A DNA stretch of 64,000 nucleotides from positions 32,001-96,000 of IMG/VR virus record IMGVR_UViG_3300014204_000112; one strand, 5' to 3'. The translations under genes and the position numbers were made by a program. Source of the stretch: a virus. Taxonomy: Duplodnaviria; Caudoviricetes. Shown in pieces: positions 18,251 to 24,789 of this stretch. Position 1 is the stretch's first letter; each line of letters starts with the position of its first letter. Below the pieces are notes generated by a model. That model saw only the letters and a program-made list of their open reading frames with translations, searched no databases and was not told the origin of the DNA.

Positions 18251-18573
18251 TGATAGAAATTCACGGGTTCATCCCATTATTCGAAAGAGTTCTCATCAAG
18301 CCAGACGAGCCTGAAAAATTAACGGAAACCGGCATCATTCTTCCGGCTTCTTCCATAAAAAGACCGAATACTGGAATTGTCATGGCAATAGGGCATTTGG
18401 TTGGCCAGTCTAAGGCTCCAATCAATATCGGAGATCACGTTCTTTACTTGAGATATTCAGGTTTTGATACGGTGATAAACGGTGAGACCTATCACCTTGT
18501 CATGGTAAATGACTTAGTCGGAATTATAGATAACTCAGGTAGCAATACCTTCGAGTTAAAAGACTACAGTTAA
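18250..18573 (+). CDS. groES: Co-chaperonin GroES (Cpn10)
   Basis: PLFERVLIKP, TETGIILP mobile loop, IGDHVLY..YSG. Confidence 0.93.
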   Translation: MIEIHGFIPLFERVLIKPDEPEKLTETGIILPASSIKRPNTGIVMAIGHLVGQSKAPINIGDHVLYLRYSGFDTVINGETYHLVMVNDLVGIIDNSGSNTFELKDYS

Positions 18574-19268
18574 TGGAAAAGATCGTACATGACTTCAGAA
18601 CTTACCTATTGAACGAATCCAAGGAGGAATCCGGTGGAATTCGTTTGTTTTGCGACATGGACGGAGTCCTAACGGACTTCGATCGTGGGTTCAAAAGATT
18701 AAAGGCCAACGAAGATCACCTTAAGCCAAAGGAATACGAGAAGAAGCATGGAAAGAATTCAATCTGGCCGTTAATTGATCATCGCGGAATAAAATTTTGG
18801 AAGCGTTTGCCGTGGAAAAGCGATGGCAGAGAGCTTTGGGATTACATTCACAGGTACTCGCCAGTCATTCTTTCGGCTCCAAGCAGAAGTCCAGATTCAG
18901 TCAAAGGGAAACTTTATTGGTTGAAGCTTAACCTTGGAATCAATGAGAAGCACCCAGCTCGAAAATTCGAAGAATGGGATGGCACGCAGAAGGTAATACT
19001 GACTGCAGATAAGGGAGCTTTTGCTGAATCCAAGAACGACATTCTAATTGACGATCGTAGGCCGAACATCGACAAATGGACGGAGGCCGGCGGAACCGGA
19101 ATCCTTCATAACGATTCAACTGATACCGTCCGTATCCTGGAAGGTATAATTTCAAAACTAAAGGGCGAGCCGGACGACGATAAAGAACCGGCAGAAAAGA
19201 TTGAACCTAAAAACACGGAGCAGAACGAACAGCCCGAAGATACACAAAACCAAGATCAAGGAGCATAA
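18573..19268 (+). CDS. HAD-family 5'(3')-deoxyribonucleotidase
   Basis: FCDMDGVLTDF (HAD motif I), ILIDDR..NIDKW..AGG.GILH. Confidence 0.85.
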   Translation: MEKIVHDFRTYLLNESKEESGGIRLFCDMDGVLTDFDRGFKRLKANEDHLKPKEYEKKHGKNSIWPLIDHRGIKFWKRLPWKSDGRELWDYIHRYSPVILSAPSRSPDSVKGKLYWLKLNLGINEKHPARKFEEWDGTQKVILTADKGAFAESKNDILIDDRRPNIDKWTEAGGTGILHNDSTDTVRILEGIISKLKGEPDDDKEPAEKIEPKNTEQNEQPEDTQNQDQGA

Positions 19269-19295
19269 GTTCTCGGACTTAAACCGAGTGGTGGA

Positions 19296-19374
19296 GTTGA
19301 CCAGATGGAATATTGGCTTGGAAGCAACCATCTATCTAAGGAGTGCGTAACTGCTCACCATCGAATCGGTCAGC
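19296..19374 (+). ncRNA. 23S rRNA GTPase-associated-centre (H42-H44, uL11-binding domain) mimic RNA
   Basis: 19304-19362 (GATGGAATATTGGCTTGGAAGCAACCATCTATCTAAGGAGTGCGTAACTGCTCACCATC) aligns colinearly with the 58-nt E. coli 23S 1051-1108 domain, with compensatory substitutions; an outer stem gttgacc/ggtcagc encloses it; no other rRNA sequence surrounds it. Confidence 0.8.
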
Positions 19375-19381
19375 CTAAAAT

Positions 19382-19411
19382 GAAAAAGGGACTCAATTGA
19401 GTCCCTTTTTC
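19382..19411. terminator. Bidirectional terminator between convergent operons
   Basis: Perfect palindrome gaaaaagggactc-aatt-gagtccctttttc. Confidence 0.9.
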
Positions 19412-19428
19412 TATTGACAAAGTCTGGG

Positions 19429-22400
19429 TTAGAAGGATGGAGTAAAACCCGTAGACTGCGAAGATAATTGTCCTCCAACTCGTGTGATCGTGATGCGGTT
19501 GATGAATTTGTGAATTCCTCTTGGGAAGTCAACCAGAATGTCAACGACTCCTGCATTGTTCTCCAGAACTTCAGTTCCGTTGTTGCTATCATCGAAGATA
19601 ACATCGTACCATGAAATTCCACGAGCGTCTTCAACTGCTGCAAGGTAATTCTTGACCATTGTTTTAACTCTCATTCTGGTCGTAACGTCGTTCCAATCAA
19701 ATAGGAAGTTAAGGAGGATACGTTCGATGTCCCTTTCAATCGTGATGAGGGCTTCTCTTACGTGAGTGTTGTTGAGGGCGGATTTTACTCTCTGGTAACC
19801 TGTGTTGTTCGAGAATACCATGACTCCGAATCCCCTACGTCTTACGATCAGGTTGAAACCTGCTGGTTCCAAGTAATCACGATCTTCGTTTATGAGATCG
19901 TATTCGATGCCGGTGATTTCAGGATCGGTTAAGATACCCCTCTTACCTGCAACGATTGAGAAGGTGTTTCCACTGGTGTATTTTTTCATGAATGTGTTTG
20001 CTACGAACATAGCTGGAGGAATGGACTTGTTCTTTCCATTCTCGTAGATGATGATGTTCGGCATGAAGTAGGAAACGTAAGAAGATAAAGGAATGCCGTT
20101 CTTTTCGCCAGTTGCGAATGAGAATAGGAATTCAGGATTCGAGTTCAAATCTCCACCAGTTGAAATTGACTGAGCGGAAACGAGGCGAGTTACTGGATCG
20201 ATGAATCTTGGGCTTACTGATCTTTCGTACTGAGCGAAGGAAGGAGCATTTGCAATCACCAATAATTTTCCATGATCTGCTGCGAGCTGAGCGAGTTGCT
20301 GTTTTGATCCAGGGTAAATCTGACCTTCGAAAGAGTCGATTAAGTACCTGAAGTCCAGAGTTTCTCCGTCTGCTAATGTTGAAGCTAAATTGCTACCATT
20401 GAACATGAAGTCCAGGATGGTGTTCTGCCTTTCAGCTGTGCCGTTAGGATAGAGATTGAAATCGTCAAGGTTCATTGCTGGAATGCTGTAACCTGCGATT
20501 GAGGTAACGAAATTCTTGATTCCCTTATAAGCGCGAATCGTAGTTCCGTCGAAATTGATTCCACTGTTGTTCACATCGATCGGAGCTGCAGTTTTTACCG
20601 TGTATTTGAGAACGGTTACTGCTGAGCTTGATGGGCCGTAGCCGGTGATTGATACTTTTTGTGCATAGACTGACGTGATGCGTAGCATACGACCACGTTC
20701 TGTTCCTGCTACAACTTCGGCTTTCAGGTATTGACCAACTTTGAAGAAGTTATCAATTTCTGCCCTACGTGTTGAATTGTAAGGATAACCGGCTGCAGTG
20801 TTAGGTGTTTCGTTCTTGTTCGGGTTACCGTATAGGGTAGGATCGATGTAGAACGTGATCTGATTAGGAGCAGTGTATGTGTACTGATAGTCTCCGTCTA
20901 TGAAGTAGTCGGTGTCAGTAAGATCGAAATCTTTCTTGTAGGTTGCCGAGGTTGCATTGACCATCCATAGGAAGTCGTCTCCTGCGTCCGTGATGGACTG
21001 AGCTGATACCTGGTTTAGTCGAGTAATATCGGAAAATACGTTGAATGTGATGTACTTCACTGAGCCGTTTAGTTTTACTGCTCCGTCTGATGCAATATAA
21101 AGAGAAGTAGGGGTCAAACTAGGACCGCCAGCGTATTTCAGGTAGTCTCCATTCTTTACGAATCCATTGAACCATGCATTGTAAAGCTTGCTGTTTTCGG
21201 TAGCAACTATCGTGTTAGGAGTAACTGCTGTGTTGATGTAAACTTCTCCAGCGATATACGTAGGAACGTAAGTCGATAGGAGGAAGTAGAAGTTAGAGTC
21301 GAGAGGTTTCTTGTAGCTGAGAACGTCGATGAGACCTACTGGCTCGGTGCCGGTAATACCGTCATCAACCACGTAAGCAGTTTTAGTTCCATTGTACAGG
21401 TTGAGATCATCAATACCGTATCCGACTAGGTCGAGACGCTGTTCTTCCATTGGCTCAGTTGCGGATCCGCTGTCGAACGTAGAGTTCGAAAGGTCGATTA
21501 TGTCAACTTTCTTGTAGTCAATAGCGCAGTAAACTCCGGTAGTTGGGAAGTTACGGTTGAAAACTGTGTCCAGAGCAACGATTGTTCCAGTAAGATCCCT
21601 GAATCCAGGAATGATGCATCCCTGAGTTTTTGCGATTAGGGTAACTTCTTTAAGTGCTGTGAAATCGTTGATCTTCGAATTGATGAGACCAGTTGACGTA
21701 AAGTATTGCTTGTAAACAGGGTCGCTTGCAAGTTTTAGATTGTCTGTCCAGTTTCCTTCGACTACGATAAGTTCGACGAAATAATCCTGAACGATGTCAT
21801 CTGGATTGAGGTATTCTGGAACTTCTGTTTTATCTCCGAGGAGAGCGAAGTATTCCTTAACCGTAATATCATAACCGGTAACATCAGCGACTCTTACGAA
21901 TGCTGTGATTTCTTTGCAGGAAAGGTTAACAACGGTTAAAATCTTATTGGAATCGCGATCGGCCGTGCCGTACTGACTAGGATTGTAAATGTAATCATCA
22001 CCCAATTTGATATTCTTCCATTTATTGACCATATCAACGTCAGCGAACCAAAGTTTCTGAACGTTATAGAAGTTGGACATGCTGCTCTGGTTGATATTCT
22101 CTGCCCATAGAGAGTTGGTCGAAGCAGGTTCAGAGTTGAACGTTCTGAAGTACGCTAGATCAGTTGAGGAAACCGGTAGAATGTTCAGACCAAAAACAGG
22201 ACCTTGTCTCAAAGCAACGTCGAGTGTTCTGTGGAAGTAACTTCCGTTTTTCTCTAGCTTGCTGTCGGTGTCCCCGTATACGGCCTGTAGAGTTTTGCTA
22301 TCCTGAATCAGTGCGACTGAATTGATAGGGCCTTTTTTGCTGGAACCTATTACAAGTCTGCCAGTGGAAATAGGAAGGGCAAGATTTTGGCTTTCATCTA

Positions 22401-22458
22401 TTTCTATCGTGTATACGCCACTTGACTTGAACCTGTTCAGATTTAATTTTTCTGCCAT
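19429..22458 (-). CDS. gp18: Contractile tail sheath protein (T4 gp18-like)
   Basis: N-terminal SSGVYTIEIDES; C-terminal AGKRG, SALNNTHVRE, FDWNDVTTR, FDDSNNGTEVLENN sheath motifs. Confidence 0.93.
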   Translation of the reverse strand: MAEKLNLNRFKSSGVYTIEIDESQNLALPISTGRLVIGSSKKGPINSVALIQDSKTLQAVYGDTDSKLEKNGSYFHRTLDVALRQGPVFGLNILPVSSTDLAYFRTFNSEPASTNSLWAENINQSSMSNFYNVQKLWFADVDMVNKWKNIKLGDDYIYNPSQYGTADRDSNKILTVVNLSCKEITAFVRVADVTGYDITVKEYFALLGDKTEVPEYLNPDDIVQDYFVELIVVEGNWTDNLKLASDPVYKQYFTSTGLINSKINDFTALKEVTLIAKTQGCIIPGFRDLTGTIVALDTVFNRNFPTTGVYCAIDYKKVDIIDLSNSTFDSGSATEPMEEQRLDLVGYGIDDLNLYNGTKTAYVVDDGITGTEPVGLIDVLSYKKPLDSNFYFLLSTYVPTYIAGEVYINTAVTPNTIVATENSKLYNAWFNGFVKNGDYLKYAGGPSLTPTSLYIASDGAVKLNGSVKYITFNVFSDITRLNQVSAQSITDAGDDFLWMVNATSATYKKDFDLTDTDYFIDGDYQYTYTAPNQITFYIDPTLYGNPNKNETPNTAAGYPYNSTRRAEIDNFFKVGQYLKAEVVAGTERGRMLRITSVYAQKVSITGYGPSSSAVTVLKYTVKTAAPIDVNNSGINFDGTTIRAYKGIKNFVTSIAGYSIPAMNLDDFNLYPNGTAERQNTILDFMFNGSNLASTLADGETLDFRYLIDSFEGQIYPGSKQQLAQLAADHGKLLVIANAPSFAQYERSVSPRFIDPVTRLVSAQSISTGGDLNSNPEFLFSFATGEKNGIPLSSYVSYFMPNIIIYENGKNKSIPPAMFVANTFMKKYTSGNTFSIVAGKRGILTDPEITGIEYDLINEDRDYLEPAGFNLIVRRRGFGVMVFSNNTGYQRVKSALNNTHVREALITIERDIERILLNFLFDWNDVTTRMRVKTMVKNYLAAVEDARGISWYDVIFDDSNNGTEVLENNAGVVDILVDFPRGIHKFINRITITRVGGQLSSQSTGFTPSF

Positions 22459-23403: not shown

Positions 23404-24789
23404 ATGATAATAAGCACAGAATTTAACGTAGATGAGTCCGCTCTAGTCGTTTCGTATTATGACGAGCAAGGAAAGATTGCATTCATCAAAAAACCGATTC
23501 CACAAACGGACCTTTTCAACTGGACCGTCACTGCAAATCCAACTGAATTCAGGAATTGGGACAATAAGTTTTTACGCAAATCTCCAAGCAAATGGTTGAG
23601 TCGCTTTCGATTGGAAGAATTGACTCAAGCTCGATTAAACCAAGCAGAACTCGACAGGATCTATTCAGACTTCAGCCCGAAGAAGTTCTACCTTGACATC
23701 GAAATAAAGCTGGAATCTCAGGAGTTTCCTGATCCAGCAAAAGCATTGATGGAAGTCAACATGATAACCTTCGTGAACGAGGAAAACATCGTTTTCACGA
23801 TGTCGACCATGGACAATTTCGATCCAGAAACGGTTCAACTTCTGGAAGCGGAGGTCAATGAGTACCTCAAGTCATGTGGGCAAACGTTCGTTGTCAAGTA
23901 CATGTTCTTCCAAACGGAACGAGAACTTCTAGAAGCATTCTTTTACAAAGCTCTTCCAAAAATATCGTTCCTTACTGGTTGGAACTTCATTGGCTTTGAC
24001 TGGTTGTATCTCATGAATCGGGCAAAACGATTGGAAATGGATCCAATGCGTTTCATGGCTTGCAACAAACTGATCGGCCAGGCAAAACTGCCGATTCACC
24101 TTGGCCTTCTCGACTACATGGAAGTATTCAAGAACATCAAGCCGTTCAAGGTCGTTGAAAATTACAAGCTCGATTACATTGCCTACATGGTTCTAGGCAT
24201 CACGAAATTGCACAACGAATATAGGTCAATGCTCGAAGCTCAGGGAGACACTTTCAATTTCGCAAAGTACAACATCATCGATACTTGCCTAGTCAAGTTA
24301 ATTGACGATAAGACTGGATTATTGGAAGTAGCTTTCGCTATTTCAAAATTCGCTAGGGTCGACGTGTCGAAAATATTCAGCTCCGTATTCATTACTGAAA
24401 CTATGATGTGCCGCGAATTCTTGGAAAGAGGTCGATTCATGTCGAACGATAAACGAGAGCTCGATGAGGAAGCAACGTACGACGGAGCATACATCATGAA
24501 ACCGATTCCCGGATATTACAAGTACGTAATGCTCAATGACTTCGCTTCGATGTACCCGAACCTCACGATTCAGTTCAACATGTCTCCGGACGCTTACATG
24601 GGCAAGATGAAACCAGACATGGAAATTCCGGCTCACATGATATTCACAAAGAACGATACGTTATTCGCCAATACGTTCGACTCAGCAGCTAGAACGATTC
24701 TTACTCGAATGTACAATGGTCGAGTTGAAACAAAAGCAGAAAAGGAAAAGCTTGAGGAGCAATTGGAACGTGAAAAAGTGTCTGCATAA
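23404..24789 (+). CDS. Family-B DNA polymerase, N-terminal subunit (split gp43A-like)
   Basis: Exonuclease motifs YLDIE, GWNFIGFDW, YNIID; polymerase motif A DFASMYP; ends after the first finger helix with no motif B or C. Confidence 0.88.
   Translation: MIISTEFNVDESALVVSYYDEQGKIAFIKKPIPQTDLFNWTVTANPTEFRNWDNKFLRKSPSKWLSRFRLEELTQARLNQAELDRIYSDFSPKKFYLDIEIKLESQEFPDPAKALMEVNMITFVNEENIVFTMSTMDNFDPETVQLLEAEVNEYLKSCGQTFVVKYMFFQTERELLEAFFYKALPKISFLTGWNFIGFDWLYLMNRAKRLEMDPMRFMACNKLIGQAKLPIHLGLLDYMEVFKNIKPFKVVENYKLDYIAYMVLGITKLHNEYRSMLEAQGDTFNFAKYNIIDTCLVKLIDDKTGLLEVAFAISKFARVDVSKIFSSVFITETMMCREFLERGRFMSNDKRELDEEATYDGAYIMKPIPGYYKYVMLNDFASMYPNLTIQFNMSPDAYMGKMKPDMEIPAHMIFTKNDTLFANTFDSAARTILTRMYNGRVETKAEKEKLEEQLEREKVSA

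Follow-up and report, generated by a model that had tools for sequence, protein, structure and literature searches.

The Locus and Its Features

We analyzed a 64,000-nucleotide stretch of viral DNA (hereafter the window), i.e., positions 32001-96000 of a 213,922-bp IMG/VR virus record of 83% completeness according to CheckV, in which the gap between two convergent genes holds an element imitating the GTPase-associated centre (GAC) of the 23S ribosomal RNA (rRNA), the domain bound by the ribosomal protein uL11. The GAC is the place where EF-G, EF-Tu, IF2, RF3, and RelA-bound tRNA meet the ribosome, and it is the target of thiopeptide antibiotics. The genome is that of a large T4-like phage, probably of Bacteroidota, and the layout around the element is that of a T4-like myovirus. 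On the (+) strand, genes for a gp32-like single-stranded DNA-binding protein, a 5'-3' exonuclease/RNase H, a GroES homologue, and a deoxyribonucleotidase follow one another, and a tail sheath gene faces them from the other strand (Table 1). The stop codon of the nucleotidase (19266-19268) is separated from that of the sheath gene by 160 nt (19269-19428), and this gap contains a first hairpin (hairpin 1), a second hairpin (hairpin 2) with a 59-nt GAC-like domain inside it, and a terminator. The nucleotidase mRNA would carry the GAC-like element as its 3' untranslated region (3' UTR), and the terminator would end both this transcript and the convergent tail-sheath transcript. A first-pass annotation of the window, made from the sequence alone, had proposed here a free-standing copy of the uL11-binding domain, at the 3' end of the gp32-like/exonuclease/GroES/nucleotidase gene row. 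The element is at that very place, in the 3' UTR, and the identification held: we are dealing neither with an rRNA gene, nor with a chimera, nor with a near-identical cellular fragment.

Table 1. Positions (in the window) and basis of the features discussed in the text.
Feature	Position	Strand	Basis
5'(3')-deoxyribonucleotidase, HAD type, 231 aa	18573..19268	+	List of open reading frames (ORFs); PHROG 2643, E 4.6e-21; syntenic in relatives
Hairpin 1, 23-nt conserved motif, starting one base after the stop codon	19269..19291	+	Sequence, fold, conservation
Hairpin 2	19290..19375	+	RNAalifold consensus of 14 relatives without the domain; intergenic comparison
59-nt GAC-like domain	19304..19362	+	Rfam LSU local match; own covariance models; pair counts; comparison with real 23S
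Bidirectional intrinsic-terminator-like hairpin	19383..19410	.	Stem 19388-19394/19399-19405; A run before, T run after
Tail sheath gene, 1009 aa, convergent	19429..22458	-	PHROG tail sheath, E 2e-84; Pfam sheath C-terminal domain, weak

A Free-Standing Copy of the GAC

When a 251-nt segment was searched with the Rfam model of the bacterial large-subunit (LSU) rRNA (RF02541), positions 19292-19396 (+) were matched to model positions 1071-1185, i.e., helices 42 to 44 (H42-H44), with 42.3 bits and an E-value of 8e-12, a local match limited to H42-H44 as had been anticipated. Over the whole record, the GAC-like element is the sole LSU match (48.5 bits, E 1.5e-14), and no second rRNA-like piece was found by this model in the 214 kb. 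The model covers ~2.9 kb and has a gathering score of 50 bits; because the LSU match stays below it, a default Rfam scan of the window is empty. A 23S rRNA gene is ruled out, since only model positions 1071-1185 were matched, under the gathering score and once in the record. An assembly chimera or contaminating rRNA is rejected as well, on account of this single local match and of phage flanks that are common to independent assemblies.

The domain is composed of a closing helix (19304-19308/19358-19362, the equivalents of 1051-1055/1104-1108 in E. coli numbering), of H43 with the 1065-1073 loop, and of H44 with the 1093-1098 loop. Its helices are colinear with those of the 23S rRNA, in the right order and register, with 14 of the 15 model pairs canonical, and a covariance model of our own (R1) gives it 79 bits. 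As a reference, we used the E. coli GAC (1051-1108), whose sequence, as quoted in the first-pass annotation, was confirmed by a true enterobacterial 23S rRNA present in a viral contig (L281:1392-1449 (-)). The compensated changes relative to this reference are real: the closing helix GCCAG/CUGGU becomes GAUGG/CCAUC, pair 1059-1079 passes from G-C to A-U, and pair 1082-1086 from U-A to C-G. The one extra nucleotide is also present, after 1078.

Regarding the loop and junction positions, U1060, U1061, G1071, C1072, A1077, A1088, and A1095 are kept, as is the C1092-G1099 pair. They include the three residues (G1071, C1072, and A1088) that had been singled out as tertiary, the crystal-structure literature being the basis for the residues taken here to make tertiary contacts. 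All the loop and junction residues conserved in Rfam are retained apart from 1067 and 1074. Of the two loops said to be preserved, the 1095 loop keeps A1095, but the 1067 loop carries a G instead of an A. The 1074 equivalent is an A and not a G, which produces a C·A mismatch at 1064-1074 in the H43 stem. In the Rfam alignment, a 9-nt deletion falls at the place of the 5' strand of kink-turn 42, in agreement with the shortening of that side noticed earlier.

Selection on the Fold and Comparison with Cellular 23S rRNA

Part of the divergence from E. coli has a simple origin. In Flavobacteriaceae, all 12 of the 23S copies extracted (an identical GAC in 12 genomes) show a 59-nt centre, G1067, an extra base after 1078, and C1097, whereas A1067 and a length of 58-59 nt are found in the Rfam consensus and in three other 23S copies. 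The phage copy likewise has G1067, C1097, and the additional base after 1078. These Flavobacteriaceae-type traits point to a Bacteroidota host, and the nearest cultured relatives of the sheath protein (Flavobacterium phage MaF61 and the Prevotella Lak phages, ~30% identity) fit such a host. The identity of the base at 1067 governs thiostrepton binding in E. coli. Because G1067, the extra base, and C1097 are of the Flavobacteriaceae type, the covariation invoked in the first-pass annotation as a sign of selection on the fold was overstated when measured against E. coli; the selection itself was borne out by pair counts, as follows.

Compared with the Flavobacteriaceae GAC, the phage domain shows 13 differences in 59 nt (78% identity), ten of them in paired columns. 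Four pairs are changed on both sides and are still canonical, one G·U pair becomes G-C, and the only broken pair is 1064-1074. Random substitutions in the paired columns do at least as well as the phage copy in 0.06% of the trials (P ~0.0006). In an alignment of 11 sequences, made of six phage copies and five true 23S copies, the share of paired cells is 96.1%, compared with 78.5% in shuffles; both sides have changed in 11 of the 15 pairs, an outcome obtained in 0 of 500 shuffles. The GAC-like domain is under selection on its fold.

A close cellular source was not found. A window-specific 19-mer across H43 occurs five times in 185,579 species genomes: four occurrences are chance matches in coding DNA, and the fifth is a true 23S rRNA of a Flavobacterium metagenome-assembled genome (MAG), differing in the helices. 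In 201 Flavobacteriaceae genomes, no 23S rRNA is more than 86% identical to the domain over at least 49 nt, the best cellular match found being at 82-86% identity. A recent capture from a cell is rejected on the basis of the 19-mer search and of this ceiling of 86%. We also observed that the true 23S rRNA of a Flavobacterium sp. MAG (L285:1507-1565) carries an A at the 1074 equivalent, i.e., the same C·A mismatch as the phage copy.

A Wider Family of Phage RNAs

The element is not a one-off. Scanning IMG/VR with the H43 core gave more than 118 loci among the matches listed, and family membership was shown in more than 100 other viral contigs. Nearly all of these loci follow the same plan, i.e., a closing helix of at least 8 bp, H43, the 1082-1086 turn, the start of H44, a variable insert, what remains of H44, and the closing strand. 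The insert is located between 1090 and 1091 and measures 52-375 nt. In 63 distinct members, the five closing-helix pairs are canonical in 92-100% of the cases (38-84% in shuffles), and each of the four Watson-Crick types is represented; pairs 1058-1080 and 1082-1086 covary as well, and G1067 is found in 10 of these members. Typical members have an A at 1101. No flanking 23S motifs were found at the family loci, and a scan of 12 of them at the Rfam gathering scores detected tRNAs only. A tRNA lies within 500 nt at 57 of 89 family loci.

Like these RNAs, the window element is encoded by a phage outside of any rRNA gene and consists of an H43/H44 core that closes on itself by a covarying helix. 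It is devoid of two typical traits, having neither the H44 insert nor adjoining tRNA genes; it keeps U1101, and its 5-bp closing helix is nested in another conserved motif. Compact, insert-free copies are rare (L280, L278, L162, and L237). Partial matches were obtained in unannotated gaps of cultured jumbo phages, namely GAP32, CBB, XacN1, XaC1, fHe-Yen9-04, Serratia BF, and Aeromonas 4_4572. In Cronobacter phage vB_CsaM_GAP32 (JN882285, ~289,510-289,760; L346:1190-1440), we read both halves and the closing helix of an insert-bearing member, in an unannotated 293-nt gap between the hypothetical genes GAP32_395 and GAP32_396. We found no description of a GAC-like phage RNA in Rfam 15 or in the searchable literature, and the first-pass annotation, too, knew of none for such an element in phages. 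The window element is a compact form, in an unusual place, of a phage RNA family that is widespread and apparently undescribed.

The Two-Hairpin Element That Hosts the Domain

The small hairpin that had been noticed ahead of the domain is present, and it turned out to be an independent and widespread phage motif. Hairpin 1 has a 5-bp stem (19272-19276/19284-19288) and a 7-nt loop. We found it, exact or near-exact, in 73 viral stretches representing 52 distinct contexts (including L010-L035 and L298-L345). Its stem covaries, with C-G/G-C in 32 cases, U-A in 18, and A-U in 1; its loop is ACUUAAA or ACGUAAA, followed by UGGAR and then by hairpin 2, the sequence of which varies widely. The motif is found after stop codons, before HNH endonuclease genes, in tandem, and within tRNA arrays, and it is single-copy in its own genome. 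Neither an Rfam match nor a literature match for its sequence was obtained, and by eye it does not fit a tRNA-like, HDV-like, pistol, boxB, or CRISPR-repeat structure. Its loop resembles a tRNA-Tyr/ochre-type anticodon loop, but with a C in place of U33. A processing signal or a scaffold are guesses for its role. In one phage tRNA array with two tandem hairpin-1 copies, we also observed a weak Rfam match to YrlA, a Y-RNA-like family (L015:5102-5228, 31 bits against a gathering score of 69).

No GAC domain was found in 26 + 48 other hairpin-1 loci, and no hairpin 1 in 2.26 Mb of GAC-family and other loci; since the two never occur together in other loci, they are independent modules. When both were searched jointly in the JGI metagenomes, only the contig of the relative L004, described below, was recovered.

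Hairpin 2 is built from basal pairs (19290-19292/19373-19375), a GGAG internal loop, and an outer helix (19296-19302/19368-19374). Its tip is occupied here by the GAC domain and in most relatives by a loop of 3-6 nt. The first-pass annotation had seen in the outer helix a mimic of H42. The helix is real and weakly H42-like, and on both strands the likeness to the Flavobacteriaceae 23S rRNA is suggestive. It is only suggestive because the hairpin is conserved in relatives without H43/H44, and such relatives gave no match to the LSU model, which was run on the records of eight relatives. Between the outer helix and the three-way junction, the two strands of kink-turn 42 are not both present. The 5' half of kink-turn 42 being missing, a binding site for uL10 or the stalk, which had also been proposed, is unlikely.

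Distribution among Syntenic Relatives and Beyond

Eight relatives were fetched by means of the sheath protein, and others by means of the hairpin-1 motif. In the relatives, the order nucleotidase - hairpin 1 - hairpin 2 - terminator - sheath is kept, and the position of the terminator is kept in all syntenic relatives. Only one other syntenic lineage, L004 (= L012 = L149; 27% GC), carries the domain at the tip of hairpin 2, in a stretch of 56 nt with 16% GC. Using a covariance model (R2) which had the window domain (19304-19362) among its building sequences and from which L004 was left out, the L004 copy was detected over its full length with 30.7 bits and an E-value of ~2e-5, with 14 of the 15 pairs canonical. 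The Rfam LSU model gave no match to this copy even in 251 nt, and a loose GAC pattern scan, which yielded chance matches among the matches listed, missed L004. The L004 copy combines a U at 1072 with U-A at 1092-1099, which work of Draper and Gutell reportedly describes as an alternative base-triple form.

In the nucleotidase tree, the window is sister to L022 (100/99 support), and L004 falls in another subclade. The L022 nucleotidase is 88% identical and its locus has no domain; there, as in at least six other syntenic lineages, hairpin 2 is merely capped. Such a distribution takes a minimum of two gains, both at this hairpin tip, or else a minimum of three losses, and gain by module transfer is plausible. 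The element was not found in Flavobacterium phage MaF61.

Another compact copy comes from an unrelated phage. L280 is a 26%-GC contig in which 2 of the 28 ORFs have weak matches in the genome studied here. Its core, with 44% GC, differs from the window core at five positions: one is G1074, which restores a C-G pair, and the other four make up two compensated closing-helix pairs. This compact copy (L280:230-372) lies in its own intergenic region, with a TATAAT-like box ~50 nt upstream, and it is probably a separate small RNA gene.

Wider Genomic Setting

The nucleotidase ORF has no match in a Pfam search. A simple promoter and terminator scan of 18400-19700 listed nothing, and the terminator was read from the sequence and the fold; the scanner probably missed it because the palindrome leaves no loop. 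The minimum free energy (MFE) fold of the whole UTR has a z of -4.5. A search of GenBank DNA for close phage relatives recovered none, and a short-query blastn matched the terminator alone. Concerning tRNA genes, there are none in the window; a block of 41-42 of them, all on the (-) strand, occupies positions 127663-159138 of the record, i.e., 76-108 kb from the GAC-like element, which lies at 51.3 kb in the record. Inside this block, a 145-aa ORF (record 144290-144484) is a borderline MazG-like candidate (22.3 bits for a cut-off of 22). Finally, a 461-aa ORF (window 23404-24789) contains the exonuclease domain of a family-B DNA polymerase but, of the polymerase domain, no more than the first ~130 positions, and the polymerase gene may be split or interrupted at this place.

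Proposed Function and Alternatives

We propose, with a rough probability of 0.55, that the domain acts as a decoy of the GAC directed at uL11. Grafted onto the tip of hairpin 2 in a conserved two-hairpin 3'-UTR element, it would be transcribed as the end of the nucleotidase mRNA and might then be trimmed off. Once folded, the domain would bind the host uL11, or a factor recognising the uL11-GAC surface, off the ribosome, and this decoy or sponge would change what the host translation apparatus senses or does during infection, e.g., the uL11-dependent activation of RelA. RelA activation requires uL11 at the GAC, a site with which all translational GTPases make contact; because of this, the decoy could blunt stringent signalling or, alternatively, sequester a factor or toxin directed at the GAC. 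We infer that the element would be transcribed, would adopt the tertiary fold, would bind uL11, and would have a physiological effect. A broader proposition is more doubtful, namely that phages of many lineages deploy GAC decoys matched to the host type, which would capture uL11 or a reader of the uL11-GAC surface and disable a ribosome-linked alarm or defence (e.g., RelA), and that the decoy of this T4-like clade is a portable module, grafted perhaps twice and independently onto the tip of a conserved UTR hairpin with which it is otherwise unrelated.

Several observations weigh against the uL11 decoy. The C·A mismatch created by G1074A lies in or near the uL11 surface, and phages of this clade can do without the GAC domain. 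In nearest-neighbour folding, the preferred structure has an alternative helix (19303-19309/19331-19337, pair probability ~0.94 in an 81-nt context), and in the 59-mer the native closing helix is 1.9 kcal/mol worse, according to nearest-neighbour energies which leave tertiary contacts outside the model. The predicted MFE structure of the phage domain is thus the alternative helix, unlike real 23S centres, which take the native fold in the same test; this competing pairing is the one that the first-pass annotation had put forward as able to undo its proposal. The Flavobacteriaceae comparator, on which the substitution test was based, was chosen post hoc. Moreover, homologues of uL11, bL12, and RelA/SpoT are absent from the record (83% complete), where only the borderline MazG-like ORF was detected.

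The structural evidence is the same if the RNA is a decoy or platform for a partner other than uL11, be it a host defence toxin or modification enzyme directed against the GAC region of ribosomes, a translational GTPase, a RelA-type sensor, or a phage protein that it would scaffold, and we regard this as unlikely. Such a role would suit the large variable H44 insert of typical members and the location of the family among tRNA genes, themselves often counter-defence cargo. However, no candidate partner was identified, the compact copy comes with neither an insert nor a second rRNA-like piece, and, from established ribosome biochemistry, an isolated domain without uL11 and the stalk is a poor ligand for GTPases. 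The position of the domain, directly upstream of a terminator at an mRNA end, also brings to mind a 3'-end stability module, i.e., a stable tertiary cap that would block 3'-5' exonucleases or shape termination with no ligand, its rRNA ancestry being incidental. Relatives do manage with a plain hairpin 2, and in other phages hairpin 2 tolerates very different sequences and sub-hairpins. Yet, this explanation, which we find quite improbable, leaves aside why one rRNA domain, its residues in loops and junction preserved, is found again and again elsewhere, in over 100 phages, why a near-identical 44%-GC core is kept in the 26%-GC phage L280, and why the copy is of the host-type variant.

Neutral debris, i.e., a decaying piece of 23S rDNA brought by illegitimate recombination, or an assembly chimera, is close to refuted. 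The patchy presence among close relatives, which is a difficulty for the uL11 decoy too, would be expected of debris, as would the C·A mismatch and the competing fold, and real 23S pieces do contaminate "viral" contigs and phage records. On the contrary, substitutions in the domain are compensated, a near-identical core with a re-compensated closing helix exists in the unrelated phage L280, and the domain is placed exactly at a hairpin tip with both flanks common to relatives; there is no flanking rRNA and no near-identical cellular source.

Comparison with Known Systems

With the bacterial 23S GAC (E. coli 1051-1108, the 58-nt fragment that binds uL11 and thiostrepton), the phage copy shares a colinear secondary structure, including the 9-nt H43 loop, the 1082-1086 turn, and the 6-nt H44 loop. 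It differs from it by standing alone in an mRNA 3' UTR with no other rRNA around, by the C·A at 1064-1074, by the missing 5' strand of kink-turn 42, and by a closing helix and two inner pairs that have been rewritten. With the phage GAC family, it has in common the H43/H44 core and the covarying closing helix, as well as a purine (A or G) at 1056, a U-A or C-G pair at 1082-1086, and the minority G1067.

The leaders of ribosomal protein mRNAs (L10, L1, and L20 in Rfam) are likewise RNAs which imitate, off the ribosome, the binding site of a protein on rRNA. However, they are cellular cis-regulators with a minimal motif upstream of ribosomal protein genes, whereas the phage copy is a near-complete domain, viral, and 3' of a nucleotidase gene. 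A ribosomal protein leader is ruled out here, as no leader family was matched at E-values up to 10 and the record has no ribosomal protein gene. GOLLD and ROOL are large structured phage RNAs clustered with tRNA genes, like the insert-bearing members, without any sequence or model match to them; neither is known to contain an rRNA-like domain.

RNA anti-CRISPRs are phage RNAs that imitate CRISPR repeats to capture a protein partner. The pseudo-ToxI RNA of phage PhiTE is a phage RNA decoy imitating an antitoxin, with a partner that was demonstrated (PMC3475682). The working model is the same for the element described here, except that the imitated molecule is rRNA and the partner a presumed one.

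Significance

Among the translation components found in viruses are tRNAs, ribosomal proteins, and translation factors. Neither Rfam 15 nor the full-text literature searched shows a virus with a copy of a functional rRNA domain, and to that extent the element is new. The evidence points to the 59-nt core as a module that moves between unrelated phages, and the fact that the window copy follows a lineage-specific, Flavobacteriaceae-type variant of the GAC suggests matching to the host. The close relatives provide a natural series of presence and absence, in which the short loop of the sister phage is a ready deletion control, and the existence of members in cultured phages such as GAP32 makes bench testing possible. 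If the proposal is true, a phage RNA competing for uL11 or for the readers of the GAC would constitute a new way to take over or blind the translation and the stringent control of the host.

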